A DNA stretch of 64,000 nt from positions 10,391 through 74,390 of the forward strand of contig JAZNFP010000045.1 in assembly GCA_045576095.1 (NCBI GenBank), read 5' to 3'. Positions 8,592-26,777 of this stretch are shown in pieces. The DNA is from Eubacteriales bacterium. Its GTDB lineage: Bacteria; Bacillota; Clostridia; Oscillospirales; CAG-272. The first letter of the stretch is position 1; every line of letters begins with the position of its first letter. The position numbers were made by a program, and so were the translations under genes. The notes under the pieces were generated by a model. The model searched no databases. It saw only the letters and a list, made by a program, of their open reading frames with translations, and was not told the origin of the DNA.

Positions 8592-11582
8592 TTAAACGGG
8601 AGTTTTTTCGGTCTCTCGCTCCGCAAGCGCACCGATCAGGCTGCGAAGGCGAATCTTAACGGCACCGAGATTCGTGATCTCGTCTATTTTGATTTGTGTA
8701 TAAAGCTTTCCGTGTCGCTCAAGGATGGAGGAAACCTCGTCGGTTGTGATCGCGTCGATACCGCAACCGAATGAAACGAGCTGCACGAGCTCAACGCCGT
8801 CGTTTTTGCCGACGAACTCTGCGGCGCGGTATAGCCTTGCATGATAGGTCCATTGATTGAGCACAGCAACACGCGGAACCTCGTATTCGGCTCCGATCGC
8901 ATCCTCCGAAAGTATCACGAAGCCAAGCGATGCGGCAAGTCGGTCGATCCCGTGCCCGATTTCGGGATCAATATGGTAGGGACGCCCCGCAAGAATCAAG
9001 GCTCTCCTGCCGCTTTCCCTTGCATAGCGAAGCGCCCTTTCACCGATCTCCCGCGTTTCCCGCATCCAACGCCCGTAGGCATCGACGCCGGTATCGACTG
9101 CTTGACGGATCATGCGATAGGAAAGATCTGGGAAATCGCTCTTCAGCGCACGCAACAGCCCCCGCGAGAGCTCCCCGGGGTCGTTGATGTTGAGATAGGG
9201 ATAGAGAAAGCGCACGTTCTCAATGCTATCCATATTGGAGTGCAGAAGCTCGGAATAATAGGCAACGACGGGGCAATTATAGTAGTTATCCGAGGCGTGT
9301 TCATTGATATTGTAGGAAAGCCCGGGATAGAAGATGCAGTCAACCTTTTTTTCAATCAGCTCCTCGATATGTCCGTGCATGAGCTTGGCGGGATAGCACG
9401 CTGTATCCGATGGGATGCTGTACTGCCCCTTCTGATACAGGCGCCTTGTCGAAAAGCCCGAGCAAACCACTTCAAATCCAAGGCTTCGAAAGATCGTCGA
9501 CCAAAGAGGAAGCAGCTCGTACATACCGAGTGCAAGCGGCAAACCGATTCGTCCCCGCGTGCCCTTTTCCTCGGCACAATTTTGCACCAGAGCCTCGATG
9601 CGATTCCGCTTCCATTCATGCAGATTGGTAATGACGTCGGTTTCTTCTCCCGTCTCCTTCCCCGCCCCCTTTTCGCAGCGGTTTCCCGAGATGAATCGCT
9701 CGCCGCCCGCAAAAATATTGACGGTCAGGTGGCAACGGTTTCCGCATCCCGCACAGACCGTCGCCTTCGACTCGTGGGAAAAGACGGCGAGCTCCTCGGG
9801 GGAGATCAACGTTGACGACTGATTTGCCGACACCTCGGCATAGATTGCCGCACCGTATGCCCCCATGAGTCCTGCGATAGAGGGGCGAACAACCTCCCGA
9901 CCAAGCTCAAGCTCAAAGCTTCTGAGCACGGCGTCGTTGTAGAAGGTTCCGCCCTGCACGACGATATGCCGTCCGAGCTCGTCTGCCGACGAGGCGCGTA
10001 TCACCTTATAGATTGCGTTTTTGACAACGCTCATCGAGAGCCCTGCCGAAATATCCGCAACGCTTGCGCCGTCCTTTTGTGCCTGCTTCACAGACGAATT
10101 CATAAAGACCGTGCATCGGCTTCCGAGGTTCACGGGAGCGGAGGCAAAAAGTCCGAGCCTTGAGAATTCGGCAATCTCATAGCCGAGCGCGCGGGCAAAG
10201 GTTTCGATAAAGGAGCCGCATCCCGAGGAGCAGGCCTCGTTGAGCATGATCGAATCAATCGAGCGATTCCGAATTTTAAAGCATTTGATGTCCTGACCGC
10301 CGATATCGAGAATGAAATCGACGTCCGGGCTAAAATGGCGCGCCGCGTGATAATGCGCAAGCGTTTCAACAAGCCCGAAATCCACCCTGAAGGCGTGCCG
10401 AATGAGATCCTCGCCGTAACCGGTTACAGCGCTTGCGCGAATCCGGATGCGATCGCCGCAGAGTCGGTAGATTTCCTTGAGCTGTTGCTTCACGATCTCG
10501 ACCGGTGTTCCGCGGTTGGAGTCGTAATACGTATAAAGAAGCTCGCGATTTTCGCTCATCAAAACGAGCTTGGTGGTCGTGCTTCCGCAGTCGATTCCAA
10601 GGTATGCATCTCCCGAGTAGCTTTCGGGATCAAGTGTCGGAACGCTCGCCTTGGCATGCCGACGAAGGAATCCCGCATACTCGTCCCGGTCCGAAAAGAG
10701 CGGCGGAAGTGCCGCAGTATTCGACACAGTGGTCTCTGCACCGCGAATGCGAGAAACAAGCTCCCGATAGGTAAAGGTGCTGTCCAGTGACATTGCATAG
10801 ATTGCCGCTCCGAGCGCAACCGAAACGCGACCGAACGAGGGGAACAAAGCGTTTTCCGGGGAGAGCTTTAAGGTTTTGATGAAGCGCTCGCGCAGTCCCA
10901 TGCAGAAGGATAGCGGTCCGCCGAGAAACATGACCTTCCCCCGAATACGACGGCCCTGGGCGAGTCCCGCAATCGTTTGATTCACCACCGCCTGATAAAT
11001 GCTGGCGGCGATGTCGGATTTCGCAGCCCCCTGATTGATCAGCGGCTGAATATCGGTCTTGGCAAATACGCCGCATCTTGAGGCGATCGGATAGATTCGC
11101 TCCGAAGAGAGACTCAGCTCGTCGAGCTCGTTGACCGTTACCCCGAGAAGCGTTGCCATCTGATCAATGAAGGCGCCGGTGCCGCCTGCACAGGAGCCGT
11201 TCATGCGCTCATCCATGCCGCCCTCAAAGAAAATGACCTTGGCATCCTCGCCGCCAAGCTCAATGACGGCAGAAGTATCGGGGGCAAGGCGCTTGACGGT
11301 CTCACCTGTTGCAAACACCTCCTGAACGAAGGGCAGCCCCGCTGCATTGGCAAGACCCAGACCGGCAGAACCGGAAACGGCAACACGAAGCGGTTTGCTC
11401 CCGACCACGTCCTCAAGGTCATCAAGCAGCTCAAGAGCCTTTTTCCGAACCATCGAAAGATGGCGCTCATAGCACTCAAAAAGAACCGTTCCGTTATCTA
11501 CGGCAACGATTTTAGCGGTCGTTGATCCAATGTCGATTCCGACCGAGATACAGTCGCCGGTATTTAGCTCGAACTTCTCCAT
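8592..11582 (-). CDS. Double BcrAD/BadFG-type ATPase (2-hydroxyacyl-CoA dehydratase activase-like) fused to a C-terminal DUF2229-like domain
   Basis: Two actin-fold ATPase modules (IGIDIGSTTAKIV and LGIDCGSTTTKLV). Each carries the cluster-bridging Cys motifs (SCAGGTGAF / SRCGVFA, and ACSSGCGSF / SRCTVFM). There is also a CAGCGNRC...GNRCEKG Cys cluster. ATG 11582 is preceded by GAAGGAG. Confidence 0.9.
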   Translation of the reverse strand: MEKFELNTGDCISVGIDIGSTTAKIVAVDNGTVLFECYERHLSMVRKKALELLDDLEDVVGSKPLRVAVSGSAGLGLANAAGLPFVQEVFATGETVKRLAPDTSAVIELGGEDAKVIFFEGGMDERMNGSCAGGTGAFIDQMATLLGVTVNELDELSLSSERIYPIASRCGVFAKTDIQPLINQGAAKSDIAASIYQAVVNQTIAGLAQGRRIRGKVMFLGGPLSFCMGLRERFIKTLKLSPENALFPSFGRVSVALGAAIYAMSLDSTFTYRELVSRIRGAETTVSNTAALPPLFSDRDEYAGFLRRHAKASVPTLDPESYSGDAYLGIDCGSTTTKLVLMSENRELLYTYYDSNRGTPVEIVKQQLKEIYRLCGDRIRIRASAVTGYGEDLIRHAFRVDFGLVETLAHYHAARHFSPDVDFILDIGGQDIKCFKIRNRSIDSIMLNEACSSGCGSFIETFARALGYEIAEFSRLGLFASAPVNLGSRCTVFMNSSVKQAQKDGASVADISAGLSMSVVKNAIYKVIRASSADELGRHIVVQGGTFYNDAVLRSFELELGREVVRPSIAGLMGAYGAAIYAEVSANQSSTLISPEELAVFSHESKATVCAGCGNRCHLTVNIFAGGERFISGNRCEKGAGKETGEETDVITNLHEWKRNRIEALVQNCAEEKGTRGRIGLPLALGMYELLPLWSTIFRSLGFEVVCSGFSTRRLYQKGQYSIPSDTACYPAKLMHGHIEELIEKKVDCIFYPGLSYNINEHASDNYYNCPVVAYYSELLHSNMDSIENVRFLYPYLNINDPGELSRGLLRALKSDFPDLSYRMIRQAVDTGVDAYGRWMRETREIGERALRYARESGRRALILAGRPYHIDPEIGHGIDRLAASLGFVILSEDAIGAEYEVPRVAVLNQWTYHARLYRAAEFVGKNDGVELVQLVSFGCGIDAITTDEVSSILERHGKLYTQIKIDEITNLGAVKIRLRSLIGALAERETEKTPV

Positions 11583-11657
11583 GCCATTGCTCCTTCTATG
11601 TGCAAAATACGTAGTCAAACCCTCAAAATGCCACAGCTTTTCATTTTATATCATATT

Positions 11658-13104: not shown

Positions 13105-14160
13105 TCAACCCGTAATACCGGAACGCTCGATACCCTCAATCAGATATCTCTGGCCGAATAGGTAAACGATAACCAGAGGCGCGATGACCATCAGACCGCC
13201 GGCGTTTGCAATTGCTACGTTGTAGAAATGCGCATACGAGGAGGACTTCTGAAGTGCATCCGGAACACCCTCAATGAGGTCCATCATCAGCGGAACGCTC
13301 GTGGTGTTGTAGAAAAGATCGGTGTAGAAGCCGTCGGTCCACTGCCAGGAGAAGGCAAAGAGGAAAATGGTAACCATCATCGGGACCGAAAGCGGCAGAA
13401 TGATACGGAAGAAGGTACGGAAGGTGCCCGAGCCGTCTACGTACGCCGACTCCTCAAGCTCATCCGGAACGCCCTGGAAGAACTGACGCATCATGAAGAT
13501 GTAAAGTCCGTTCTTAAAGGCAAGACCGGTAAAGGAGAGGATGAAGAAGGGGGTAAACGTATTGAGAAGGCTGGGTGCCTTACCCGAAACAAGCTGGATG
13601 ATGCCCTTCCAGTTCAGAGACTGGAGCGTCAGAATGTCGAAGTTCTTGAAATGCTGGAACATCGACAGCTGCAGCGTGCTGTGCGGGATTGCCATCGTGA
13701 TGATCACGAAGATGAATACAAGCTTGTTGCCCTTGAAGCGGAACTTGGCAAGTCCGTATCCAACCATGCAGCAGATAAAGGTCTGAACCAGCGCCGTACC
13801 GACCGAAAGCAAAGTCGTATTGAGAAGAATCCTCAAATAATCGTCATCGATTGCAAGCTGCTTGTAAATCTCAAACGAAAAATGCTTCGGAATCAGGTTG
13901 ACGGTCGGGTCCGCAAAATCCTGATATGCCTTCACCGAGGTAAAAATCTTGGTGAAGAAGGGATACAGGATTACAAAGCAAAGACCAATCAGAAGAATCG
14001 CGCGAAAGACGTACCAAACACGGTCAATCCAGAAATTCGAGGAGGTGAGACGCATGAGGAGTCTTTCTTTAAAGGGAATCTTCCCCTCAAACTCCATCTT
14101 AACACCGCGACGCGTGATTTTCACGTTCGAGGAGGTAGATTTCATATTCGAAGTATTCAT
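13105..14160 (-). CDS. Carbohydrate ABC transporter permease (MalG/BPD_transp_1 type), second pair
   Basis: Six-TM binding-protein-dependent permease with an EAA-type loop (ESAYVDGSGTFRTFFRIILPLSVP). Confidence 0.9.
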   Translation of the reverse strand: MNTSNMKSTSSNVKITRRGVKMEFEGKIPFKERLLMRLTSSNFWIDRVWYVFRAILLIGLCFVILYPFFTKIFTSVKAYQDFADPTVNLIPKHFSFEIYKQLAIDDDYLRILLNTTLLSVGTALVQTFICCMVGYGLAKFRFKGNKLVFIFVIITMAIPHSTLQLSMFQHFKNFDILTLQSLNWKGIIQLVSGKAPSLLNTFTPFFILSFTGLAFKNGLYIFMMRQFFQGVPDELEESAYVDGSGTFRTFFRIILPLSVPMMVTIFLFAFSWQWTDGFYTDLFYNTTSVPLMMDLIEGVPDALQKSSSYAHFYNVAIANAGGLMVIAPLVIVYLFGQRYLIEGIERSGITG

Positions 14161-14175
14161 ACTGCATTCTCCTCC

Positions 14176-15144
14176 TTACGAATCGCGTTTCTGGTAGAAG
14201 ACGAAGGCTGATGCGAAGGCTGCGAAGACTCCGACGATCAGCATGACCACAACGAAGTAGGTCCAGGACTGTGCCGTTGCGATGTTCTGGTTGGTACCGC
14301 CGCCATCGTAGATCGACTGAATCGTTAACATGACGACGTTTGTCTGTCTCGTAAAGGAGTCGATAATCGTATAAATCGCATTCACGAAGATCATCGGGCT
14401 GACCATCGGGAAGGTCACCTTCCAGAAGGTCTCCCAGGCGGAAGCACCGTCGATGCGGCTTGCCTCGTAGATGGCAGGGCTGACCGACTGAAGTCCCGCA
14501 AGGAAGATCAACATCTGAACGCCGGAGTAGTTGACGATATCGTAAATGCTGTTTACAAGATCAATGACGTAGGTGACAAGGCCGGTTCCTACCTTCATGT
14601 TCGAAAACAGCATCTGCACATCCATCATCGAGATGAAGGCATCGGCGCCGCCGGCAGGGCCGGTACCGTTATCGGTTCCGGCGGTACCCGAGAGGGTATC
14701 TGCAGCGTTGACAGCCTCCATCAGACCGGTCGAAATAATAACCGGAACGAAGAAGATTGCACGGAACGCAGCGCGGCCAAACATCTTCTGATTCAAAATG
14801 ACGGCAACGAACAATGAGAAGATAACGATTGCGGGAACCTCCCAGATCAGGTTGAGAACCCCCTCTCCGAGCGAGGTCAAAAAGGACTGGTTAAGGGCTG
14901 ACTTGAAGTGCGTGAGTCCCACGAACTTGGTCCAGTCGTAATAGGTAATACCGTCGGTCGATGCCTTACCGATCGTCGAAAAGCTGAATGCAATCGAGTC
15001 AATGACGATCGGAAGATAAAGGAGCGCCAGTCCAAGAACGAACGGAAGCACGAAAAACCAGCCTCGACGAGCCTTTCTTTCCGAAAGCGTCAGCTTACGG
15101 TTGCCCGGGAGAAACGATTTCAATTTTGAAAATTTATTTGACAT
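14176..15144 (-). CDS. Carbohydrate ABC transporter permease (MalF type), second pair
   Basis: EAA-type loop EASRIDGASAWETFWKVTFPMVSP. Has a long periplasmic-side Gly/Thr/Ala-rich loop. Confidence 0.9.
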   Translation of the reverse strand: MSNKFSKLKSFLPGNRKLTLSERKARRGWFFVLPFVLGLALLYLPIVIDSIAFSFSTIGKASTDGITYYDWTKFVGLTHFKSALNQSFLTSLGEGVLNLIWEVPAIVIFSLFVAVILNQKMFGRAAFRAIFFVPVIISTGLMEAVNAADTLSGTAGTDNGTGPAGGADAFISMMDVQMLFSNMKVGTGLVTYVIDLVNSIYDIVNYSGVQMLIFLAGLQSVSPAIYEASRIDGASAWETFWKVTFPMVSPMIFVNAIYTIIDSFTRQTNVVMLTIQSIYDGGGTNQNIATAQSWTYFVVVMLIVGVFAAFASAFVFYQKRDS

Positions 15145-15164
15145 ATTTCATCACTCTCCTTGGC

Positions 15165-18100
15165 TCATCTCGGATCAAGACGTACGAACTCGTACTTATC
15201 AAGCGTAAGCGACCGACCCTCAAGCTCAACCTTGACCTCAAAGATGCTGAAGTTCAAAATCAAGCGAACCTCGTCGCTTCCCTTCTTGTAGGTTACCATA
15301 ACAACCGATCCGTCATCAAGCGAGAAGTCGGTGTGCTTGTAGCTTGCATCGGTCGAAAGCGAGGTGGTGAAGTAGCTGAGCTTGGTCTTGTTGAGGTAAT
15401 CCTCTACCCCCGCCGTTGCAACCTCAATGTTACCCGAGGCGGTTTCGTTTGCAGCAATGAAGTCATCCAATCTACGACAGATCCTGTCGTATGCATCGGA
15501 AAGCACGGAGTCTGCTGCAAGAATGTCAGCTGCAAAGCTTACCGAGAAGCCGTTTGCAATATCCTCAAGAATAGCGGCGCGGTCAAAGGTGAGATAGAGC
15601 GCCTGCCCCTCTGTGAGAAGAACGTCGCCGTCGTCTACCAGCTTCTTGAGCGCCGTTCCGTCGGTCAGATCGGCGTCCGCAGCGCGAAGATCTGCGATCA
15701 TGCCTGCAACGTCAGCGTCAAGACCCTCGACGTAAGCGCCGTCAGCATCGGGACCACCGATGATCAGCGCGGCAAGCTCATCATAAACGAGCTGCTTTGC
15801 ATCATCGTCAGCGGCTGCGGCAATTGCCTTTCCTGCCCGAATCAGCTCACGGACGAGTGCGCCCTTCCGAACGAGAACCGCATCGTGCTGAGCGAGAAGC
15901 AGAGAGAAATACTCGTCCTCAAGCTTCTTCAGAGCTTCCTCGCGTTCGGCATCGGTAACCACGCGCTCGGCGACCAGGAACTGATGATCGTACAGCTGGT
16001 GGGTTTGCAGATCTCCGATGGCATCATCCAGAATGCCGTAGTAGCGGATGACGTCCTCTTTCCAGATGGAGTAGTTTGCGGAATAATGCTTACTGAGAAG
16101 GAAATCCTCCTTCATCAGATCAGTGTTGCGGTAGCAGAGCACGTAGTACATTGCTGAGCCGCTCTCGATTGCGCGCAGAAGCTCGTAATCGGGGTTACCG
16201 GTTTCGTTGAACGGGGCACCGGCGTACTCAACCGTACCGTGCATCACCATGCCGTAGAACGGAACGGTGCGGCTCGCACAGAAGTAGCGGCTGCTGTCAA
16301 CGGGAGCGTTCAGAAGATAATCGACGTACTTGAGTGCGTAAACGTTTCCTCCGGTGCTCAGGAGCTTCGAATACTTCGAGGAGATCGACTCAAGCGTGGA
16401 AACGAGGTAGTCCTTTGCCGTCTCGCGGTCAAAGCTGTTGTTCTCACTGAAGTTCGAGGTCAGATCCTCTGCCATGTAATCGAGCGAAAGTGCCGTAACG
16501 TTAAACTTCGAGAGCTTCTTGTTGAACTTGTTGAAGAGTCCCGTCAGCTGATCTGCCGATACGCAAAGCGAGAAGTAGGAGAAGAAGCCCTGATAGACGG
16601 TATCGTACATCTGCTTGGAAGCGTAGCGATTATCCATCGAGCGGACGGTCGTCTTCTTCTTGGAGATTCCGCCAAGTCCGCGATTCTGGTAATTGTACAT
16701 CAAGTCGACGCCGAGGATGATCTCAATACCGCTTGCGGCATTTTCCTCCGCATAGGAAAGCAGACGGTTCAGACCCTTCTTGCCGCCAACCTCCTTCATC
16801 AGCTTCAGCTTCTTCGGGTATTTTCCCTCGACGCCTCCGTTGTAGAAGCCAAGCAGACGGAACTTCACGTTGCCGATTCCCTGCTCCGCAAGCTCGGTGT
16901 GCATCGTCTCGACGTCGTCAAAGGTCGTCAGAGCAACGTCCACCTTAACCGGGAAGGTCAGAATCTTCTCCGTGGTCTTCAGCGTTCCGTAAGACTCGAT
17001 GAAGAGCGGGATGCGCGACTTCACGTCGGTATCCGTAAGCTCACTGAGCGTCTCGGTCACGTTGATCAAATAGTTCCTGTAGTAACGTGCCATCTCAACG
17101 TAGGACGCCGTATAGGTTGCAGGCGCACCCGAGGGAACCAGCGTCTGCAGCGTGGGATCGAGAAGCATCACGATCTTCGTGGTATAGTTGCCTACGTACT
17201 TGGTATCCGAGAAGATCGGAATGTTCGCCGCACCGGAAATCGAATAGGAGTCGGTGGGACGGGGCGTATAGGACTGATAGATCGTCAGATGTCTCGAAGA
17301 CTTACGAACACCCGCGGAAAGCGTTACGAGAGAATCGCCCTCGGTGATGATCGCAAAAAATCCGGTGGTGATGCCGGTATCGGCATCGGTATTGACTGCG
17401 CCGTACACGGGGAGACGAACCGTCTGCGTTTTCTTGCCCTCAATGGTGCTGTACGCATAATCGTAGCCGTAAACAGGCTGCTTGATAACGGTCGTGGTAA
17501 CGTCCTCGTTGTTGATCAGAGCACCGCTTCCGTCGGGGAAGAACAGATAGCCCTCTTCGTTTTTGTCGTTTGCGGCAAAGTAGCGCAGGATCGAGAGCCC
17601 GTCAAGACGGTACTTCGACTCGTCAAAGGAAATGCTGCTTGCGGGAAGCGAGTAGGTCATTCCCTCATCGTCGAGCAGGTACTCAATCGCGCAACGGAAG
17701 ACGGGACGCGGCTTCTCGGCGTACTTAAAGCCAACTTTTGCCTCCTGCTTGAGCATATCATCGACGGTATAGCCGGTGTTGACCGAGGTCAGAATGTTCT
17801 GAAGCTCGATCTTCTTGTTGGTTGGGATTCCGGACTCCAGCGTCCAGATGACGGGCTTCAGTCCGGTTACGGGATCCACGTCGTCAAGAACGGGATAAAG
17901 CTTGAGAAGGTCCTCCGTCACCTCGGTCTTGTTCGGATCAAACTGCTTGTAACGTCCGGTCAGCGTCTCGTAATCGGTCAGAATCCCTACGATCCACTTA
18001 CGGAAAACGATATCCGACGGAAGCTCAAGCGCATGCTCGTCGATCACGCCGGCCTGCTTGAGGTCAAGCAGCATCTCATCATAAAGCTCCCGGTCGCCTG

Positions 18101-18914
18101 CGATTGCCTTTTTGTAGGCGTTTTTGTATGCAGTGGAGAAGGTACTCGACGCAATCGAGAACACCCCTGTCCAGTATTTTCCAAAGGCGGTTACATCACC
18201 GATCTCGCCATCGTACTGGCATTTTCTGTATGCGCCGGTGCTGCTTCCGATAATCGAGTCGAAATCGGTCGTCAGATTCTCGAACACGTCAAGGATCGAC
18301 TGCTGCATCGGGATGACGATGGTTTCAAGATAATCCTCATGCAGAATCGCCTCGGGAAGTGCGTAACGCGATACGGTATCACCGAGAACGTACTCAACGC
18401 GGATACCGGTTCTGCGGACACCGCTATCATCGAGCTTGGATATCTTGGAAATCAAGATCTGTCCCTTCTGTGCCGCCAGCTTAAAGCTGTTCTCATCAAC
18501 GTACGAGGTACCCGAGAGAATGTCGGTATAGCTGATCCAGACCTGCGAGAGCATATCGCTCATCCAATCTTCGGAGGGCTTGCCGTTGGCGCTCGGCTTT
18601 GCGACATCAACGGGATTGGTGGTCAGATACTGCCCTGTATAAAGGTTCTTAAGATAAACCTCGCCGGTATACTTGTTTGCGTACAGAGCGAACTGATCGT
18701 TCTGCGCGTAGAGGTAGGTATACCCGAGAGCAATCTCATCCTGCACCTTTTCCTCCGCGGTCAGGAAGGTTGCTTCAAAGGCGTGCTTGGTAGCCGCCTC
18801 GTAAATCAGCTGATCGCCGTCGCCTGAGGACGATGCACCCGCGGGGATCGCAACGATGCAGGAGGTCAGTACCGTCAGCACCGCAAGCATAAAAGCAATG
18901 ATTTTGTTTTTCAT
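15165..18914 (-). CDS. 1249-aa secreted or lipid-anchored protein of unknown function (possibly DUF5696-like; sandwich plus barrel-like pattern)
   Basis: N-terminal signal peptide with a possible lipobox LTSC. Segments such as YLFFPDGSGALI, KFRLLGFYNGGVEGKYP, IEIILGVDLMYNY, LSLDYMAEDL and VPFYGMVMHGTVEY suggest alternating beta/alpha units. Ala/Asp-rich helical C-terminal region. Confidence 0.85.
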   Translation of the reverse strand: MKNKIIAFMLAVLTVLTSCIVAIPAGASSSGDGDQLIYEAATKHAFEATFLTAEEKVQDEIALGYTYLYAQNDQFALYANKYTGEVYLKNLYTGQYLTTNPVDVAKPSANGKPSEDWMSDMLSQVWISYTDILSGTSYVDENSFKLAAQKGQILISKISKLDDSGVRRTGIRVEYVLGDTVSRYALPEAILHEDYLETIVIPMQQSILDVFENLTTDFDSIIGSSTGAYRKCQYDGEIGDVTAFGKYWTGVFSIASSTFSTAYKNAYKKAIAGDRELYDEMLLDLKQAGVIDEHALELPSDIVFRKWIVGILTDYETLTGRYKQFDPNKTEVTEDLLKLYPVLDDVDPVTGLKPVIWTLESGIPTNKKIELQNILTSVNTGYTVDDMLKQEAKVGFKYAEKPRPVFRCAIEYLLDDEGMTYSLPASSISFDESKYRLDGLSILRYFAANDKNEEGYLFFPDGSGALINNEDVTTTVIKQPVYGYDYAYSTIEGKKTQTVRLPVYGAVNTDADTGITTGFFAIITEGDSLVTLSAGVRKSSRHLTIYQSYTPRPTDSYSISGAANIPIFSDTKYVGNYTTKIVMLLDPTLQTLVPSGAPATYTASYVEMARYYRNYLINVTETLSELTDTDVKSRIPLFIESYGTLKTTEKILTFPVKVDVALTTFDDVETMHTELAEQGIGNVKFRLLGFYNGGVEGKYPKKLKLMKEVGGKKGLNRLLSYAEENAASGIEIILGVDLMYNYQNRGLGGISKKKTTVRSMDNRYASKQMYDTVYQGFFSYFSLCVSADQLTGLFNKFNKKLSKFNVTALSLDYMAEDLTSNFSENNSFDRETAKDYLVSTLESISSKYSKLLSTGGNVYALKYVDYLLNAPVDSSRYFCASRTVPFYGMVMHGTVEYAGAPFNETGNPDYELLRAIESGSAMYYVLCYRNTDLMKEDFLLSKHYSANYSIWKEDVIRYYGILDDAIGDLQTHQLYDHQFLVAERVVTDAEREEALKKLEDEYFSLLLAQHDAVLVRKGALVRELIRAGKAIAAAADDDAKQLVYDELAALIIGGPDADGAYVEGLDADVAGMIADLRAADADLTDGTALKKLVDDGDVLLTEGQALYLTFDRAAILEDIANGFSVSFAADILAADSVLSDAYDRICRRLDDFIAANETASGNIEVATAGVEDYLNKTKLSYFTTSLSTDASYKHTDFSLDDGSVVMVTYKKGSDEVRLILNFSIFEVKVELEGRSLTLDKYEFVRLDPR

Positions 18915-18930
18915 TTGTTCACCCCGTTCG

Positions 18931-21201
18931 TTATGTCCGATAACTGATTTCCGTCACAATCGACGAAATAAACTGTACCATCTTAGCAATCAGGCTGGAG
19001 AAGAGGATCGTCACGAACATGATTACGCAGATACAAATGATCGTTCCTAAGGTTGTGATGACGTTTTTGTTGAGCGAATAGTCGTGGGTAACGAGCATGC
19101 CGAAGAATACGAGGAATGCGACCCAGATCCATCCGAAAACGACGATCATCGTTGCGATCGAGCCCTCATCCTTGGTCATGAAGTTCTGCATGAGCGTCGA
19201 AACGACAAGCAGCGCCGGCATGGGAGCCAAGGAATAGCCAACGGCAATGAAGACATCCTTGAAGGAGCCCTCGCCGTCAAACAGCGTCGTCAAGCACCAG
19301 TTCGCGGTCGTCCAAAGAATGACGGGAACGAGAATCGAAACGATCTGAATCAGAATGCTCGAGCCGTCCTCATACGGATCGAAGATATATCCGCGACCGA
19401 CCGACTGGTAGTAGAAGGCCAGAATCGTAAGCGCAACGTAGGTCATCGCCGCACGAACCGATCCTCTGTGCTCATGCTTGATATCCCAGAAGCCGTCGAA
19501 GGGATGGAAGATCAGATGGAAGGCATATACGAGCTCCTCCCAATAGGTCTTTTTACCGACCTTGAGCGCCACGCGCGTGTTAAACTTCTTTGCCTTGCCC
19601 AAAATTTTAATGACCGCAACCAAAACGGCGATTACACCGAGGACAAGAAAAACAAAGTACTTCGAGATCCATTTGGTACGAAGCTGTGCGTAGGCATCCG
19701 AGTAGTAGGTCGTCTCGTGCGCTGCCTTGAAGTACTCCATCGCACGCTCGTAATCCTCTTCGGTCTTTGCGTTTCGATAAATCGCTTTACCGATACCGAT
19801 ATAAGCAGAGTCGAAGTTGTTATTGCGCTGCAGGATCTCGGTCCAGATGAGCTCTGCCTGATCGTAGAGGTTTCTGTTTTCCTGTGCAAGCGCCTCAATG
19901 AGAAGATCTCCGTAGCTCGTGCGCTCAAAGACCGTAAAGGAGTTGGCGTTGTAATCAAGGAGCAGAAGTCTGCTTCCCTGATAGGTAACGGCACGGACGG
20001 TCTTCAGGGTTCCGAGCGTGGTTCCTCCGTCGCCGAAGGCATGCAGCAGAACGCCGTCGGAGTTGTAGGTGTAAACGCGGCTTCTCTTCGAGTCGATGAT
20101 CGACCAAGAGCCCTCGGGACCGACGGCAATATCGGCAATCGAGGAAACTCCGCCGACCGTCGCTCCGGTCGTGGCGTCTACGGTCAAGCTGCCGAGCGTC
20201 ACCGCAACCTCGCCGCCGCAATCGAAGAAGCCGTTGCGGTTCATGATCTCCTTACCGCCGGAGTTGAGCTTCTTCACGGGAGAGTACGAGGAGCTCTTGG
20301 AGGTAATCGACTTTCTCTGGTTCTCAAGGTCGGCAGCATCGGTAAAGATGATCGTACCGTAAATGAAGCCTTTGTCGTCAACCGTAATGTTGTTGTAGGT
20401 CGTAGGGACGAACTGCTTGGAGCTGGCTCTGTCCTCTGCCGACTTAAAGCGACGCCAGAAAATCTCAAACACGCTTGCCGAAACCTTCTGAGCACCGATA
20501 AATCCGGTGAACTCACCGTTATCGCTTGCGAGAACGATAATACCCTCGTTACAGGTCGATGCAACGATATACACACGGCCGTACTTATCAACAGCGCAGG
20601 CCTTCGGGGTATACGCACCCTCGGCAAGAAGCGCCGTCTCGGGTCTCTCGATGATCTTGTGGAAGGAGCAATCGGAGCGGTTGAAGATCACGATACGGCT
20701 GTTTCCCGAGTCACATACGTAGATATAATCCTTGTAGATGAACAAGCCCTGGGGAGTCTTCAGTCTATCGTAATCGGCGGTCGTGCTCGGGAAGAAATCA
20801 ATTGCATTCTTGAACTTATACGCATAGTCAAGAACGATAACGCGGTTGTTGTCGGTATCGGAGATGTATACGTTGCCGTCCGAATCGGTGGCAATGTCAC
20901 CGGGATGCAGAAGCGTGGCGGAAAACGCCTTCTCCGCCTCTGCAGCCGGATTGGCAAAACCGGTTCCTTCAAAATAGCGGGTTGCACGCTCGATATACGC
21001 ATCCTTATACCGGTCAAGCTTCATGTAGCTTCCGTCAACGACGGGAGAAATCGGCGAATATGCCGCAGGGGAAAACAAGATGTCGCCCTGGCTCGAATAG
21101 ATGTAGGTGTCGTAGGATTCGCTTGCACTGACCGGAACCGTTCCGAAAAGGAGAATGGCAAGGCACGCGAATGCCAGAATACTGAGTAGCTTTTTATTCA
21201 T
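18931..21201 (-). CDS. NHL-repeat beta-propeller / TPR-like / Yip1-domain fusion membrane protein
   Basis: Signal peptide. About six NHL-like blades (GNVYISDTDNNRVIVLD, YIYVCDSGNSRIVIFN, GRVYIVAST, SRVYTYNSDG, ...). A helical TPR-like segment, one TM helix, then HPFDGFWDIKHEHRGS plus five TM helices typical of bacterial Yip1 family proteins. ATG 21201 has better RBS spacing than 21207. Confidence 0.85.
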   Translation of the reverse strand: MNKKLLSILAFACLAILLFGTVPVSASESYDTYIYSSQGDILFSPAAYSPISPVVDGSYMKLDRYKDAYIERATRYFEGTGFANPAAEAEKAFSATLLHPGDIATDSDGNVYISDTDNNRVIVLDYAYKFKNAIDFFPSTTADYDRLKTPQGLFIYKDYIYVCDSGNSRIVIFNRSDCSFHKIIERPETALLAEGAYTPKACAVDKYGRVYIVASTCNEGIIVLASDNGEFTGFIGAQKVSASVFEIFWRRFKSAEDRASSKQFVPTTYNNITVDDKGFIYGTIIFTDAADLENQRKSITSKSSSYSPVKKLNSGGKEIMNRNGFFDCGGEVAVTLGSLTVDATTGATVGGVSSIADIAVGPEGSWSIIDSKRSRVYTYNSDGVLLHAFGDGGTTLGTLKTVRAVTYQGSRLLLLDYNANSFTVFERTSYGDLLIEALAQENRNLYDQAELIWTEILQRNNNFDSAYIGIGKAIYRNAKTEEDYERAMEYFKAAHETTYYSDAYAQLRTKWISKYFVFLVLGVIAVLVAVIKILGKAKKFNTRVALKVGKKTYWEELVYAFHLIFHPFDGFWDIKHEHRGSVRAAMTYVALTILAFYYQSVGRGYIFDPYEDGSSILIQIVSILVPVILWTTANWCLTTLFDGEGSFKDVFIAVGYSLAPMPALLVVSTLMQNFMTKDEGSIATMIVVFGWIWVAFLVFFGMLVTHDYSLNKNVITTLGTIICICVIMFVTILFSSLIAKMVQFISSIVTEISYRT

Positions 21202-21219
21202 CTTCATTCTCTCCTTTCG

Positions 21220-22092
21220 TTAATCCTTCATTCCGCTTGCGCCCATCGTCTCAATAATCTTACTCTGGCTGATGACAAAGACGATGATCGGAACCGCCAT
21301 CATAACGACGACCGCTGCAGCACCTGCACCCGAACGGGCGATACCGCCGGCGACGATCTGCTGGATCGCGTAGTTAAATGTCTTGAGCTGCTCGGAATGA
21401 ATGTAAATTGAGGCACCCATGTTCCACAGGTTCTTAAAGCTCTCGATGATCAGCGTCAGCCACGCGGGCTTAACCATCGGCATGGCGATTACCCAGAAGG
21501 TTCGAAGCTCGCTGGCGCCGTCAAGACGCGCGCTCTCCAGAACCGTATCGGGAACCGAGGACTCCATAAACTGCTTCATCAGGTAAAGACCGAGAGTTGA
21601 CGCCATCGCGGGAACGATGACCGAAAGATAGGTATCAACCCAGTGGAAGGCACTGAGCAGGATGAAGTGCGTCACCTGGTTAACCGTCGAATGGAACATC
21701 AGGGACATGACGATGACCTGGAACATCCAGTTACGGCCCGGGAACTTCAGCTTGGCAAGCGCATAGGCTGCCATTGAGCCGAGGAACAGGTTTCCTGCGG
21801 TACCCGATGCGGTGATAAACACCGTATTGAAGATGTAACGCGAGAACGGAACCCAGGAGTCGGTCATCAGCGTAAAGAGATCGGAGTAGTTGGCAAGCGT
21901 GGGTCTGCGAGGAAGGAAGCGAGGCGGGAACATGAACAGCTCGTCAAGAGGCTTGAGCGACTGACCGATCGCATAAAGCATCGGCAGGAACATGAACGCA
22001 CCCATCAGCGTCAAAACGAGGGTAATACCGGCGTCTCCTCCGGCAGAACGGTTCAGGACAACTTTATGACCACGTGTTCTAAGTTTTTTCAT
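21220..22092 (-). CDS. Carbohydrate ABC transporter permease (MalG type), first pair
   Basis: EAA-type loop ESARLDGASELRTFWVIAMPMVKP. Six TM helices. Confidence 0.9.
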   Translation of the reverse strand: MKKLRTRGHKVVLNRSAGGDAGITLVLTLMGAFMFLPMLYAIGQSLKPLDELFMFPPRFLPRRPTLANYSDLFTLMTDSWVPFSRYIFNTVFITASGTAGNLFLGSMAAYALAKLKFPGRNWMFQVIVMSLMFHSTVNQVTHFILLSAFHWVDTYLSVIVPAMASTLGLYLMKQFMESSVPDTVLESARLDGASELRTFWVIAMPMVKPAWLTLIIESFKNLWNMGASIYIHSEQLKTFNYAIQQIVAGGIARSGAGAAAVVVMMAVPIIVFVISQSKIIETMGASGMKD

Positions 22093-22093
22093 A

Positions 22094-23176
22094 TCACTGT
22101 CCCACCTTCGAAAGAGCTTTCTTGATAACCATATTACAAGTAATCATGATAACGAAGAGAATGACGGCGATCGCCGAAGCGTAACCGACCTCATATCTCT
22201 GTCCGCCGTAGTCATCCAGGTGATGCATGATCGTATGTGCCGCGTAGTTGACCGAGGGCATTCCGCAAAGCGCGGTAACGATTGCACCGAAGCCGAAGGA
22301 CTGCGTGATCGAAAGAACGGCACCGAACATCAGCTGAGGACGCATGGTCGGGAGCGTGATGAACCACAGCTCCTGCCAACGGTTCTTGATTCCGTCAACG
22401 GCTGCTGCCTCGTAAAGGCTGCGGTCAACCGTCTGAAGTCCTGCGATAAAGGACAGGAACGCGGTACCGAGCGAGGTCCAAAGAGCGACGACGATACAAA
22501 GGGGCATAACCCAGTCGGCATCCTTGAAGAACAGAATCGGCTCGCTGATGAAATCAAATTCGATCAAAAATGCGTTTGCCCAGCCATAGTAGTCGGACGA
22601 GAAGAAGGTCTGCCATACCATGTAGACCGAGCCCGAAATCGAGGGGGCATAGAAGATCAGCGTTACGAGAGCACGAAGCTTCGGGGGCAGCTCATTGATG
22701 AACCATGCAATGAGCAACGCCATGATGTAGGAAACGGGGCCTGTGATCGAGGCAAAGATCAGGGTATTCTTCGCGGCGATCAGGAAAATCTCGTCGTTAA
22801 GCAGCAAACGAGAGAAGTTGTCAAATCCAACGAGGTGCGGGAACTGAAGCATGTTGAAGTCGGTCAAGCTCAGAACCATCGACAGGATAACGGGAAGCAC
22901 GGTGAAGATGAAGAACAGAATCATAAAGGGGGCGACCATGAAATACGCAACCTTATTCTTCTTCATCTCGTTCCAGATCCACTGCCGACGCGTCATTTCC
23001 GCGCGGGATACCGGACTCGATGCATTGTTTCCGTTTTGTGAACCGCTCGTCTTTTTCCGAGTCACGAGCGACTTGGTCTTCCCGGCCACGGAAAGGGCAC
23101 CGGATTTGCATTTGGTGCCGATTCCCTTAAGCCCGGACACAAGACGCGCGCCAAAGGATTCATTGCCTTGTGACAT
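22094..23176 (-). CDS. Carbohydrate ABC transporter permease (MalF type) with an N-terminal cytoplasmic extension, first pair
   Basis: EAA-type loop EAAAVDGIKNRWQELWFITLPTMRP. ATG 23176 lies 10 nt after GGAGA. The ORF-track start at 23200 is TTG. Confidence 0.9.
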   Translation of the reverse strand: MSQGNESFGARLVSGLKGIGTKCKSGALSVAGKTKSLVTRKKTSGSQNGNNASSPVSRAEMTRRQWIWNEMKKNKVAYFMVAPFMILFFIFTVLPVILSMVLSLTDFNMLQFPHLVGFDNFSRLLLNDEIFLIAAKNTLIFASITGPVSYIMALLIAWFINELPPKLRALVTLIFYAPSISGSVYMVWQTFFSSDYYGWANAFLIEFDFISEPILFFKDADWVMPLCIVVALWTSLGTAFLSFIAGLQTVDRSLYEAAAVDGIKNRWQELWFITLPTMRPQLMFGAVLSITQSFGFGAIVTALCGMPSVNYAAHTIMHHLDDYGGQRYEVGYASAIAVILFVIMITCNMVIKKALSKVGQ

Positions 23177-23218
23177 TGTGCATATTCTCCTTTTTCTCAA
23201 AATGTATTCCGGTATCTC

Positions 23219-26200
23219 TTAGTTGCTCGCTTCGGGAGAGGTCGTCGTCTCGGGGGCGCCGGTCGACATGCCGAACTCCTTACGCTTTCTCGTAATCTCA
23301 TCGTTGATTGCGTTGAGATAACCGGTCAAGGCGTCAACCGGATTCGCACCCTCGTTCTTCACGTCAAGGAATGCAAAGTCGGTGTAGCGGGCAATGATAT
23401 AGCTTCCGGGGTAGTTCACAATTGCGGAAAGGTGGTTGAGCTGATCCTGGATCGCAGCGTTCTCCTTGGTGGTCCAGGAAAGCTTCTCGATTGCACCGAG
23501 GTTTGCCGCCGCATACTTTGCGGAGGGACCGATCAGGGCAACCATGCGGTTACCGTACTCAGCCTCGACGTCTGCGCTCGTCTGCCACTTCATGAAGTTC
23601 CAGGCTGCGTCGGGATCCTTACAGCCGTGGAGCATAACGGTTGCGGTGATGGTTGCGATCGAGTTGTAATTCTTGACTCTGCCGTCGTCTCCCGCAACGC
23701 CGGGGATCGAGGAGAAGCTCCACAGACCCTTGATTTCGGTTGCAAAGACGGTCAGCGTATTATAAACGGTAATGTAATCGGAGATAACGAGAGGCATCTC
23801 ACCGGTACGGAAGCGGTTTGCGGGATCAAAGCTGACCGGGAAGCCGTAATCGGTGTAAAGGCTCGTGCAGAAGCGGAATGCCTCGAGAGCCTCGTTGGTT
23901 CCGAGACCGATCTGCGAGCCTGCGTACTCGGGATTATCCTCGTACAGCCACATGCTACCGCCATTTTGATAAAGGAAGAAATCGAGTGCGAGTGTGTAGT
24001 TAACACCGATCTCAAGGTAGTTGCTCTGGAAGATCGGGAGCAACGCAAGCACCTCGTCCCATGTGGTCGGGACGGCAACACCGAGCTCTGCGAGGACGTC
24101 GAGACGGTAGAACATCATCGGGAAGTTCATCGTCAGGGGAAGTCCGTAGGTCTTATTCTGAAGCGTCAGGGTGTTCATCGCGGCCTTGTGATAGATATCG
24201 TCCTCGGTTCCCGAGACGCCGTCGGCGCCGTATGCCGCTACGGCAAAGTCGTCAAAGTAGGAGATATCGTTGATTGCGCCGCGGATTGCATAGTTGATGA
24301 CCGAGGCACTGTCAAGTCCGAGATAAACGTCGGGGCCCTTCCCTGCCAGAACCGAAGGAAGCAAGGTCGATGCAACGACGAGCTTCAGCGAAACAGGTCC
24401 GGAGTTGTCGAGCTTGGAATAATCGCCGTCGATCAGCGAGCGCCAGATCTTCGACTGGTCACGGCCCAGAGCGAGCCAAACGTTCAGGGCAGAATCACCG
24501 AGCGACTCCTTGTCGGTCACGCCCATGTTGTCGTAATCGGTGACAAAGCTCATGAAGAACGCCTTGATCTGATAGCCGAGCGTCTGGAAGAAGTTTGCGT
24601 TTGCCTTCGGCGCCTTTGCCTCGGGAGACTGGATCGAGAGGAAGTCGATGGTCATGATCGAGGCCTTAGAGTTGTTGACCCAGGTACCGAGCGTACCGAG
24701 GTAGGACTTGAGGGTTGCGAGATTCTTTGCGATCTCGGATTCGCTGCCGCCCATCTTGGTCAGAAGATCGGAAACCGTCTTGAGCGTTGCGATATGCGAG
24801 CCGGTCGTTCCGCAGAGCTCCTCGAATCTTGCGGCAACCTCGGCAAGAGCAATCGCTTCATTATTAAAATGCCAGATTACGTTCGGCATATTGGTGGAGA
24901 AATGATAGTCGCGGTACTCGTCGGGATCTGCGCCCGTCAGCTTGATGATATCAAGATAGGCGTCGTTGATGGTCTTGAGCGAATCCTCCACGCGCTTGAT
25001 CAGATCGCCAAGCGAGCCGAGGCCAACCTCAATGTAAATGCGGTACTCAACGTCTTTATCAAAATAGAAGAGGAACTTGTCTTCGCCATCACCGAGGGGC
25101 TTGCTCTGCCAGTCCTTGTGATAATCGAAGCGAGCATTATAGGCAGCCTCGAAGGGAACGAGCGGCGTTCCGTCGTCAAGACCGTAAACGACACCGGCAT
25201 CCGCATCGCGGTTAGAGGACCACAGGCGAACGGTGCGACAGACATACATTCCCTGCAGCGAGGTCTGATGATACCGGAGATCAATATTGTAGAAGCCCGA
25301 CTTCTCAACCTTGAAGCTGTAAGCCGCCCACTGTCCGACCGTATCGAAGCTGGTTGCACCGATGACGTTGAAAAGCTGTGCAGCCGCCGACGTCGGAGAG
25401 GTGATTGCCGAGGTCGAATCGTTGCCCATGTAAACCGAGGTGTCGGAGACGAGAATCGGCTTCTCTGCCTGCACCTTGATTTTGGGTGTATCCTTCTTCG
25501 GAACCGCAGCAGCACCGTAATCTCTTACCATGTTAGCGATATACTCTGCGTAAGAAGGAGCGGTATAGGTGCCGTCGTTCGAGGGAAGAAGCGTAATCGA
25601 GCCGACAATGCAAGCCTCGCGGGATGCCTCGAGGGTAATCGTATGCTCACCCTCGGTCAGGAAGAATTTGAAATACCCCTCGGTATATCCGGTAGAATCG
25701 TTGCAAACGTAGGTTCTCCAATCCTGAACTGCTACGATCTCGGGCTGAAGGTCGTTGCCGTTGAGATCCTTTTCAAAGATGGGATTGCCCTCGTCGTCCA
25801 GCGGATAATCGTACTTCCACAGCTTCGAAAGACGGATATAGCTCGCCTCAGAGAAGGGAATGGCATCGTCAATGTAAAGCTTGCGCTCGATACCGTTAAC
25901 GGTTCCCTTAAGCGTGTAATACTCGATCGCGATGTAATAGAGGCCGTCGGACGGCGCCTCCACCTTAAAGGTTACCGATCCGGAGTTCGGAAGATATACC
26001 GAGCTTTCCGCACGGTCACCCATATTCGGCCAAGACCGGTAATCCTGGCAGAAGGCGCTGTTGATGACGAGCGCCGTATCCTCCGGATTGGTCGAGGTAA
26101 AATCGGTAAGATCAACCTCGAAAGAACCGGTGCCGTGAGGCTTGCTCTCCCAGCGCTTTTCATAAACCGAATACGAGGAGGCGTCCAAATAGGACTTCAT

Positions 26201-26365
26201 CTCATTCGGATCCTCAAAAAACTTGTTGTCAGCTACGGAATTGCCGCTTCCAGAGCTGCCGGCACCGGATGACGCGTCTGCCGACACGGTCATACCTCCG
26301 ACGCCAAAGCAGACAACGAGGGCAAGAATCAAAGCAACAAGCCGTGTGAATTTGCTCTTTTTCAT
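23219..26365 (-). CDS. Giant (~1048 aa) extracellular solute-binding protein: ~600-aa N-terminal extension plus a C-terminal family-1 SBP domain
   Basis: Signal/anchor peptide MKKSKFTRLVALILALVVCFGVGG followed by a Ser/Gly linker. The C-terminal half has SBP_bac_1-like landmarks (GKGPDVYLG, TYGLPLTMNFPMMFYR, VPTTWDEVLALL, RFRTGEMPL). The N-terminal half holds two similar beta-sandwich-like segments (FKVEAPSDGLYYIAIEYY and FKVEKSGFYNIDLRYH). Confidence 0.9.
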   Translation of the reverse strand: MKKSKFTRLVALILALVVCFGVGGMTVSADASSGAGSSGSGNSVADNKFFEDPNEMKSYLDASSYSVYEKRWESKPHGTGSFEVDLTDFTSTNPEDTALVINSAFCQDYRSWPNMGDRAESSVYLPNSGSVTFKVEAPSDGLYYIAIEYYTLKGTVNGIERKLYIDDAIPFSEASYIRLSKLWKYDYPLDDEGNPIFEKDLNGNDLQPEIVAVQDWRTYVCNDSTGYTEGYFKFFLTEGEHTITLEASREACIVGSITLLPSNDGTYTAPSYAEYIANMVRDYGAAAVPKKDTPKIKVQAEKPILVSDTSVYMGNDSTSAITSPTSAAAQLFNVIGATSFDTVGQWAAYSFKVEKSGFYNIDLRYHQTSLQGMYVCRTVRLWSSNRDADAGVVYGLDDGTPLVPFEAAYNARFDYHKDWQSKPLGDGEDKFLFYFDKDVEYRIYIEVGLGSLGDLIKRVEDSLKTINDAYLDIIKLTGADPDEYRDYHFSTNMPNVIWHFNNEAIALAEVAARFEELCGTTGSHIATLKTVSDLLTKMGGSESEIAKNLATLKSYLGTLGTWVNNSKASIMTIDFLSIQSPEAKAPKANANFFQTLGYQIKAFFMSFVTDYDNMGVTDKESLGDSALNVWLALGRDQSKIWRSLIDGDYSKLDNSGPVSLKLVVASTLLPSVLAGKGPDVYLGLDSASVINYAIRGAINDISYFDDFAVAAYGADGVSGTEDDIYHKAAMNTLTLQNKTYGLPLTMNFPMMFYRLDVLAELGVAVPTTWDEVLALLPIFQSNYLEIGVNYTLALDFFLYQNGGSMWLYEDNPEYAGSQIGLGTNEALEAFRFCTSLYTDYGFPVSFDPANRFRTGEMPLVISDYITVYNTLTVFATEIKGLWSFSSIPGVAGDDGRVKNYNSIATITATVMLHGCKDPDAAWNFMKWQTSADVEAEYGNRMVALIGPSAKYAAANLGAIEKLSWTTKENAAIQDQLNHLSAIVNYPGSYIIARYTDFAFLDVKNEGANPVDALTGYLNAINDEITRKRKEFGMSTGAPETTTSPEASN

Positions 26366-26434
26366 ACCTATACGTTCCTCCATTGGTATCTCAAAATCCA
26401 GAACAGGGCATCATGCACAGCTATGGATATTAAA

Positions 26435-26463
26435 ATCATACCACATTGCTCCCTGATTGTCAA
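26435..26463 (-). promoter_or_regulatory. Near-consensus SigA promoter of the seven-gene operon
   Basis: On the minus strand: TTGACA (26463-26458), 17-bp spacer, TGgTATGAT (-10 at 26440-26435). AT-rich A-tract region upstream (26470-26760). Confidence 0.6.
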
Positions 26464-26777
26464 GTCCTACACTATTATATATCGCGTGCCAAAACGGGAA
26501 AATCGGGTGATTTTTACCAATTATCTCCATGCCTCGCACCGACCGCTTTTTTCGGAAGATAAACGTAAATATTTGTTTACACAGCGGTATTCACAATATG
26601 TTACTACAAATTACTTTTATTTTTGGTAAAACGCCAAAATAAAAGTCTATTTTTTATCGTAAGTAATTTTATATTACCCACCGGAGGGAGGTGCGAGCCT
26701 GAAAATTCCTTGTTTTTCCAAAAAAAGAAGGCGAAAAATTACCAAAAAAATTTTTTATCGATTTTTTTCAGTCGTAG

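Follow-up and report, generated by a model that had tools for sequence, protein, structure and literature searches.

In a 64,000-nucleotide stretch of DNA from a Eubacteriales bacterium (GenBank assembly GCA_045576095.1, contig JAZNFP010000045.1, positions 10,391 to 74,390 of the forward strand; hereafter the window), we analyzed a minus-strand gene at 18931..21207 whose product joins an extracellular NHL beta-propeller, a TPR-like stalk and one transmembrane (TM) helix to a five-helix Yip1 membrane domain. The gene, here called NHL-TPR-Yip1, is the fourth in a cassette of seven co-directional genes (13105-26383, (-)) separated by gaps of 1-20 nt, which also encodes a giant solute-binding protein (SBP), four ATP-binding cassette (ABC) permeases and a protein of the DUF5696 family. 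We propose, with a probability of about one half, that the NHL-TPR-Yip1 protein serves as a scaffold or tether subunit, without enzymatic activity of its own, in an ABC importer for glycans that has two translocators. We favor a scaffold or accessory role because the gene order of the cassette is strict, split forms of the gene occur, the SBP and the DUF5696 protein have no conserved anchors, and YknW, a bacterial Yip1 protein that works with an ABC transporter, provides a precedent. A preliminary description of this DNA had suggested a receptor, scaffold or gate accessory rather than an enzyme; the same evidence supports that suggestion, and it is from this evidence that we infer the function.

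The open reading frame (ORF) encodes 758 residues from its first ATG (21207) and 756 from a second ATG at 21201. The ribosome-binding site AAAGGAGAG lies about 9 nt 5' of the second ATG but only about 3 nt from the first. Moreover, Met3 is almost invariant across homologues in a 79-sequence alignment, which was used for the AlphaFold2 prediction and for all conservation figures of this protein, and a look-up of the exact 758-residue product in a protein collection gave no match. Given the spacing of the ribosome-binding site, the conservation of Met3 and the absence of the 758-residue sequence from the collection, the ATG at 21201 is probably the true start. In order, the protein consists of a signal peptide, a six-bladed NHL propeller, two TPR-like hairpins, a TM helix, the motif HPFDGFWDIKHEHRGS and the five-helix Yip1 domain. 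The AlphaFold2 model has a mean predicted local distance difference test score (pLDDT) of 86 and a predicted template-modeling score (pTM) of 0.74, and the E-values of the Yip1 and NHL Pfam matches are far past chance level. The ORF, Pfam and AlphaFold2 thus confirm the fusion of an NHL propeller to a Yip1 five-helix domain that the preliminary description had read from the sequence. The signal peptide that it had reported is also present: it occupies residues 1-29 (21121..21207, (-)), hydropathy marks a hydrophobic stretch at residues 3-31 that ends in the cleavage-like site VSA/SE, and A28 at its end is almost invariant.

The propeller spans residues 30-430 (19918..21120, (-)) and is defined by Pfam, PDB sequence matches, AlphaFold2 and Foldseek. 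The Pfam NHL model (PF01436) matches the protein at E 5e-10, with a score of 39.3 bits where the cut-off is 20, and there are weaker SBBP and TEN_NHL matches. AlphaFold2 predicts six four-stranded blades, mostly with pLDDT above 90, which together with the Pfam match agrees with the roughly six NHL-like blades claimed earlier. A sequence search of the PDB returned NHL propellers only, namely Pizza designs, PknD, TRIM71, Thin and teneurin-like proteins, and several of the repeats align with Pizza, PknD and TRIM71 chains. The Foldseek search of the predicted structure, a check that the preliminary description had proposed, likewise returned six-bladed NHL domains, with TRIM71/Lin41, Pizza6, Thin, TRIM2/3 and Brat at the top of the list. 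Their E-values run from 4e-13 to 1e-9, and isolated NHL-domain chains give target-normalized template-modeling scores of 0.71-0.79 (0.73-0.79 for TRIM71, Thin, Brat and Pizza6, E about 1e-13 to 1e-11). Enzyme propellers, such as virginiamycin B (Vgb) lyase, appear at rank 48 or lower with a score of 0.57. Across the 79 homologues, residues 30-430 contain no invariant His, Cys or Glu, and the conserved Asp, Asn and Arg residues of the propeller are the structural NHL signature. Nor does the protein match SGL (PF08450) at E <= 0.01. The modeled propeller is therefore best described, with support from these comparisons, as resembling binding NHL domains and not enzymes; a known enzyme fold with catalytic residues, which would have spoken against the earlier interpretation, did not emerge, Foldseek favoring non-catalytic NHL domains. 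The segment at residues 306-336 (VKKLNSGGKEIMNRNGFFDCGGEV) is a highly conserved part of the propeller, with a mean top-residue frequency of 0.81. As a separate observation, family members of 814 residues in two related loci (L011 and L012, 7525-9969 (+)) carry an extra helical insertion of about 100 residues near the propeller N-terminus, and the protein of the window has a shorter version of this insertion, also helical, at residues 59-94.

The propeller is followed by a TPR-like helical stalk of four helices at residues 431-499 (19711..19917, (-)). In the AlphaFold2 model, the helices at residues 431-444, 448-461, 466-478 and 483-495 form two TPR-like hairpins. Pfam gives no match to TPR families at E <= 0.01 in the protein of the window, and homologues match TPR_16, TPR_2 and TPR_1. 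The TPR-like stretch reported earlier is thus suggested by the predicted helices and by the homologues, but not by a TPR model match in the protein itself. Next comes a 48-residue helix at residues 500-547 (19567..19710, (-); hydropathy 3.09), within which TM1 covers residues 511-542 with a core at about 516-537. The loop after TM1, residues 538-583, contains nine Lys or Arg residues. Since this positive loop is combined with a signal peptide, the loop should be cytoplasmic and the propeller outside the cell, which is the topology that the preliminary description had predicted.

The cytoplasmic segment at residues 548-583 (19459..19566, (-)) is amphipathic and contains the N-terminal part of the Pfam Yip1 match. 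It carries a near-invariant motif from H564 to S583, in which almost every residue of HPFDGFWDIKHEHRGS (residues 568-583) is invariant among the 79 homologues; AlphaFold2 places the motif on three short helices at residues 555-578, and the mean top-residue frequency of residues 548-583 is 0.82. The five-helix Yip1 bundle then occupies residues 584-758 (18934..19458, (-)), as defined by Pfam, AlphaFold2 and conservation. Yip1 (PF04893) matches residues 564-732 over model positions 2-171 of 173 (E 1e-16); its 61.7 bits exceed the gathering cut-off of 28.6, as is also the case in relatives. A C-terminal domain unlike Yip1 would have contradicted the earlier assignment; the score above the gathering threshold places it in the family. 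The predicted helices lie at residues 584-604, 618-643, 649-674, 679-708 and 712-757. In the hydropathy profile, TM1 and all Yip1 helices but the weaker TM2 (four of five) exceed a Kyte-Doolittle threshold of 1.5, so that AlphaFold2, hydropathy and the alignment together recover the arrangement described before, one TM helix, the motif and then five TM helices. A PDB sequence search found no meaningful solved relative of the Yip1 half (best E 0.8). Membership in the Yip1 family rests on sequence and predicted structure; the Yif1 and Rab/Ypt partners of its eukaryotic members do not exist in bacteria.

The most conserved residues of the Yip1 bundle face the cytoplasm. Its conserved cytoplasmic loops are DGEGSFK (residues 644-650), with a mean top-residue frequency of 0.89, and THDYS (residues 707-711), and conserved polar residues also occur in TM3 (N636, W637, C638 and T640). 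Because the most conserved parts are residues 306-336 outside and residues 548-583 and 644-650 inside, the protein appears to have one functional face on each side of the membrane. We also considered a metal or catalytic site in the motif (H564, H568, D571, D575, H578 and E579). This candidate was weakened by the distant homologues of loci L015-L018, in which H578, E579 and most other residues are lost; the only residues kept there are P569, a TM3 Trp, G645-E646, Y658, P662 and Y710.

The fusion is not a one-off but belongs to a large family that has so far gone unnamed and unstudied. A homologue search at E <= 1e-3 yielded no fewer than 2,505 protein clusters. The top 120 of them are 648-794 residues long and 48-87% identical to the query, with a query coverage of 84-100% (at least 96% in all but one); Yip1 is present in all, NHL in nearly all, and TPR matches in many. 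Where databases give a name, it is 'YIP1 family protein [Clostridia bacterium]' at NCBI, and JGI has one 'sugar lactone lactonase YvrE/TPR repeat protein'. NCBIfam has no model for the family, a weak ScyF match spanning the NHL repeats only. We found no description of the family, or of the composition of the cassette, in the searched literature. The preliminary description was therefore right that the fusion is real, but it missed the large existing family and the DUF5696 partner that accompanies it in every complete locus.

A phmmer search with the Yip1 half, covering 1.84 billion representatives at 50% identity, gave 1,646 matches at E <= 1e-3 and 226 at E <= 1e-30. Among the best 150 representatives, 100 are full-length fusions of 660-1,000 residues with Yip1 at the C-terminus and 18 are standalone-sized proteins of 199-232 residues that align from their first residues; the others look like fragments. 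By Pfam, the long representatives combine Yip1 with NHL, with or without TPR, and the short ones carry no other domain than Yip1. The preliminary description had proposed a survey for standalone Yip1 genes at the same operon position, and such genes were found in three loci (L018, L021 and L022), which encode NHL-TPR-TM and Yip1 as adjacent separate genes. In L018 (GCA_016288815.1), the NHL-TPR-TM gene encodes 507 residues ending in a low-complexity cytoplasmic tail. The Yip1 gene, encoding 209 residues, starts 4 nt later with its own ribosome-binding site GGAGGAGGAG and opens with the motif HPVEGFEDMRWKKSGS. Since the split genes keep the same operon position, the ectodomain and the Yip1 module appear to work together whether fused or not.

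We gathered related loci from the Yip1 homologues and from DUF5696 and annotated them with HMMs built from the proteins of the window. The order SBP-P1-P2-[NHL-TPR-Yip1]-DUF5696-P3-P4 is identical in every complete locus fetched, and it is kept even where the DUF5696 protein is only 24-25% identical to that of the window (L015, from a Lachnospiraceae metagenome-assembled genome (MAG), and L017). In the window, the cassette begins with the giant SBP (23219..26383, (-); 1054 residues) and continues with permease P1 (22094..23200, (-)), whose position is conserved in all cassettes, and permease P2 (21220..22092, (-)), which ends 12-18 nt upstream of the NHL-TPR-Yip1 gene. The DUF5696 gene (15165..18914, (-)) lies directly downstream, followed by permeases P3 (14176..15144, (-)) and P4 (13105..14160, (-)). 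The gene of interest thus sits between the P1-P2 and P3-P4 pairs with gaps of 12-20 nt, and the ABC permease neighbors claimed earlier do flank it on both sides by Pfam. The loci all come from assemblies of uncultured Clostridia, obtained from human or animal gut or other metagenomes; the closest species representative, locus L005, is a Clostridia MAG from water-buffalo caecum. In most loci, the cassette is flanked by housekeeping genes (nifS/nifU/mnmA in the window and similar genes in L004 and L020), and the cassette therefore appears self-contained.

All four permeases are BPD_transp_1 proteins by Pfam, and sequence inspection found EAA-type loops in each. Similarity between P1 and P3 is confined to the surroundings of the EAA loop, and P2 shares 25% identity with P4; given this divergence, the two pairs represent two anciently distinct translocators. 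These two ancient pairs are accompanied by one SBP gene, and P3P4 has no SBP of its own. No ORF with Walker A and LSGG motifs, as expected of an ABC ATPase, was found in the 64-kb window, and none was found in the related cassettes. CUT1-type importers whose operon lacks an ATPase gene usually rely on a shared MsmK-type ATPase. Side by side with these findings, the P1 of the window has 368 residues, compared with 309-331 in its orthologues, through an N-terminus about 50 residues longer, and its listed ORF starts with TTG; an internal ATG may be the true start.

The giant SBP has an SBP_bac_8/1 domain by Pfam at residues 672-951 only. Its N-terminal part of about 640 residues has no confident Pfam domain, with faint CBM_35 and PPC matches only, and its real start is probably M7 (nt 26365), which is preceded by GGAGG. 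Across 13 cassettes, the N-terminus of the SBP carries a hydrophobic segment and, after it, an AxA-like site, and no lipobox, C-terminal TM helix or LPXTG motif was found in the protein. The DUF5696 proteins of these cassettes begin in the same way, with a signal sequence and an AxA-like site, and likewise show no conserved lipobox, C-terminal TM helix or C-terminal sortase motif. There are two exceptions in individual proteins: the DUF5696 protein of the window has a non-conserved lipobox-like LTSC, and in that of L020 an LPxTG-like string occurs at residue 77 and so is no C-terminal sorting signal. A lipoprotein anchor (LTSC) as a feature of the DUF5696 family was considered and rejected, as LTSC is not conserved. 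We infer from the AxA-like sites that the signal peptides of the SBP and the DUF5696 protein would be cleaved. The binding proteins of ABC importers in monoderm bacteria are normally lipid-anchored. If signal peptidase I indeed cleaves the SBP and the DUF5696 protein, both would need a protein tether, because they have no conserved anchors. Among the membrane proteins of the cassette other than the permeases, only the NHL-TPR-Yip1 protein has a large ectodomain.

Leads to the substrate of the cassette come only from relatives. The best PDB match of the giant SBP, in its C-terminal domain, is Lin1841 (5ysb; E 5e-7, only 31 bits), the beta-1,2-gluco-oligosaccharide binding protein of Listeria innocua. 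The distant L017 copy of the cassette (JGI 3300002854, 1-22310) lies next to genes for LacI, an extra ordinary SBP, two PF10091 (Glycoamylase) proteins, GH35/42 and GH3 proteins and a GH94 sopho-oligosaccharide phosphorylase. This neighborhood suggests beta-1,2-glucan as the substrate of the L017 copy.

The obligate partner DUF5696 (1249 residues; Pfam E 1e-126) is predicted to be secreted or N-terminally anchored. AlphaFold2 modeled its core, residues 378-982, with pLDDT 90 and pTM 0.89. The best Foldseek matches of the core belong to glycoside hydrolase (GH) family GH129, namely NagBb (5wzp, E 6e-20) and ZgGH129 (8rzk, E 5e-18, and 5opq, E ~1e-17), with template-modeling scores of about 0.6, followed by GH101 endo-alpha-N-acetylgalactosaminidases and then by GH36, GH31 and GH97. 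The likeness to GH129 and GH101 consists of the N-terminal beta-sandwich and barrel of DUF5696 (E 6e-20 to 1e-9). In contrast, DUF5696 has no sequence-level membership in these families: a phmmer search of the PDB gave E 0.7, and Pfam gives DUF5696 only. Its conserved acidic residues include D461 (98%), D485 (92%), E917 (93%), D737 (81%) and also D555. Of these, D737, at just 81% conservation, is the candidate barrel Asp. The searched literature contains no mention of DUF5696. On the strength of the modeled fold, it is plausible that DUF5696 is a new glycoside hydrolase family.

How might the NHL-TPR-Yip1 protein act as a scaffold or tether in such an importer? By analogy with YknW and YknXYZ, the Yip1 bundle would dock laterally on the transmembrane domains of the permeases, and the cytoplasmic motif of the Yip1 domain would contact the permeases or the shared ATPase. 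Outside the cell, the propeller and the TPR stalk could keep the giant SBP, the DUF5696 protein or both close to the entrance of the translocators, and they might hold the glycan there as well. Capture, trimming and import of the glycan would thereby be coupled at the cell surface, with ATP hydrolysis supplied by a shared MsmK-type ATPase encoded elsewhere. A more ambitious version, which we regard as rather unlikely in its full extent, sees in the cassette a type of Gram-positive surface machine not described before and makes the Yip1 protein its hub, which joins two ABC translocators, an anchorless giant SBP and the new GH family DUF5696, with the products of DUF5696 passed directly to P3P4. 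If this were true, it would be the first function assigned to a prokaryotic Yip1 protein in import, and it would hint that the ancestral role of the Yip1 fold was to assemble membrane complexes.

Several points weigh against the scaffold proposal. The SBP and the DUF5696 protein might be uncleaved signal anchors, in which case no tether is needed. The strongest conservation is cytoplasmic and is left unexplained by a scaffold role confined to the outside of the cell. The partner of YknW is a MacB-type exporter, with an ABC fold different from that of the importer permeases here. Finally, co-variation of pairwise identities across the 13 cassettes separates two blocks, SBP-P1-P2 and DUF5696-P3-P4 (rho 0.87-0.94 within blocks and 0.71-0.80 between them); an assignment of the propeller to the DUF5696-P3-P4 block and of Yip1 to the SBP-P1-P2 block fails jackknifing and is not used as evidence.

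The cytoplasmic conservation is better accommodated if the protein is a sensor or regulatory gate, whose propeller senses the extracellular glycan, as has been proposed for the NHL sensor domain of PknD, and whose Yip1 motif switches the permeases or the shared ATPase. The most conserved parts, residues 548-583 and the loop at residues 644-650, are cytoplasmic, the similarity of the propeller to the sensor domain of PknD (1rwi, E 3e-12) would fit, and no output domain would be required with the transporter itself as the target. Yet the protein has no known signaling domain, and the split forms, together with the long low-complexity tail after TM1 in L018, argue against tight coupling via the linker. 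As this model also leaves the missing conserved anchors on the SBP and DUF5696 unexplained, we hold it to be unlikely. We give less credit to a catalytic propeller (lactonase/SGL-, lyase- or PAL-like) that would alter or cut the glycan ahead of its import, with Yip1 as a mere anchor. Such a role is hinted at by weak SGL (PF08450) matches in some homologues and the 'sugar lactone lactonase YvrE' name at JGI, by the weak ScyF match, confined to the NHL repeats, and by the presence of Vgb lyase among the Foldseek matches. However, the window protein lacks both an SGL match at the threshold above and invariant His, Cys or Glu residues in the propeller, enzyme folds rank far below binding NHL domains, and a mere anchor would not require a conserved five-helix domain with invariant cytoplasmic motifs. 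An enzymatic propeller is accordingly improbable.

A role of the Yip1 bundle itself as a channel or transporter for a small solute, with the propeller as its extracellular receptor, is more doubtful still. A review of the YIPF family speculates that prokaryotic Yip1 homologues may be channels or transporters (PMC6682643), and the conserved polar residues of TM3 could be read in its favor; but the bundle has five helices without an internal repeat, the cassette already has four permeases, the PDB search gave no sequence similarity to solved transporters, and the standalone YknW is an accessory subunit, not a transporter. Least credible of all is an envelope protein co-transcribed by chance and functionally unconnected with the transporter. 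In favor of such a bystander counts only the lack of direct evidence for an interaction with the transporter. Against it, every complete cassette has the gene at the same position, with gaps of 1-20 nt, although the DUF5696 identities range from 24% to 100%.

Regarding the control of the cassette, promoter and terminator scans were not enriched over shuffled sequences, save for a single strong promoter-like site upstream of the SBP gene. This site is a sigma-70-like TTGACA-17-TATGAT with TG (26435..26463, (-)), with 11 of 12 matches, and represents a consensus match only. About 100 nt upstream of it lies an imperfect palindrome, TGTAAAC-N5-TTTACG (window 26560-26600, (-)), which from its sequence is a possible candidate operator. 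A search of Rfam revealed no regulatory RNA within the operon or ahead of it. Two neighboring genes were also noted. The window (8592-11618, (-)) and L015 (16324-20847, (-)) each have a very large gene for a BcrAD_BadFG plus DUF2229 'CoA enzyme activase' at a distance of a few kb on the downstream side of the cassette, which may be coincidence. In L015, a gene for a DUF624 (YesL-like) membrane protein (1361-2083, (+)) lies directly upstream of the giant SBP gene; DUF624 proteins, too, are small accessory membrane proteins that go with sugar ABC operons.

Yip1 proteins are universal in eukaryotes, but what they do at the molecular level is a matter of debate. In the cassette, fusion, gene order and occasional fission tie a Yip1 domain to a defined bacterial machine that is open to genetics and biochemistry. 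The cassette is abundant in Clostridia of the human and animal gut, with thousands of protein clusters, all from uncultured genomes. Working it out would add a new type of glycan uptake to the repertoire of the gut microbiome, and it could show how monoderms retain binding proteins without a lipid anchor.

Among known systems, the eukaryotic Yip1/YIPF proteins share with the window protein a five-helix domain that follows a cytoplasmic segment, PF04893 being matched nearly end to end. In contrast, they act in traffic between endoplasmic reticulum and Golgi with Yif1 and Rab/Ypt and have no extracellular propeller. The propeller half has its best PDB relatives by sequence in the sensor domain of PknD of Mycobacterium tuberculosis (1rwi) and in the Pizza designs derived from it. 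PknD likewise carries a six-bladed NHL domain outside the membrane on a single TM helix. However, the propeller of PknD is coupled to a cytoplasmic Ser/Thr kinase, and that of the window protein to a Yip1 bundle without a known signaling domain. The cassette as a whole resembles the CUT1-type importers of Firmicutes and the polysaccharide utilization loci of Gram-positive bacteria in its SBP_bac_1/8 protein, its MalF/MalG-like permeases with EAA loops, its ATPase-free operon and a glycosidase-like gene in the cluster. It differs from them in having four permeases in two ancient pairs, one SBP of 1,000 residues without a lipobox, and an obligate NHL-TPR-Yip1 subunit together with an obligate DUF5696 protein.

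The preliminary description had called bacterial Yip1 proteins essentially uncharacterized. This agrees with a 2019 review of the YIPF family, according to which no function had been reported for prokaryotic members (PMC6682643), but that statement overlooks YknW. In Bacillus subtilis and Bacillus amyloliquefaciens, YknW is the fourth component of YknWXYZ, belongs to the Yip1 family and is reported to modulate the assembly of YknX with YknYZ (PMC4887032, PMC4338810). Compared by description, YknW and the protein studied here are both bacterial Yip1 polytopic proteins encoded in ABC transporter operons. YknW, however, is small, stands alone without an ectodomain, and works with a MacB-type exporter and a membrane fusion protein, whereas the Yip1 domain of the window is fused to an NHL-TPR ectodomain and encoded among BPD_transp_1 importer permeases, an SBP and a glycosidase-like protein.

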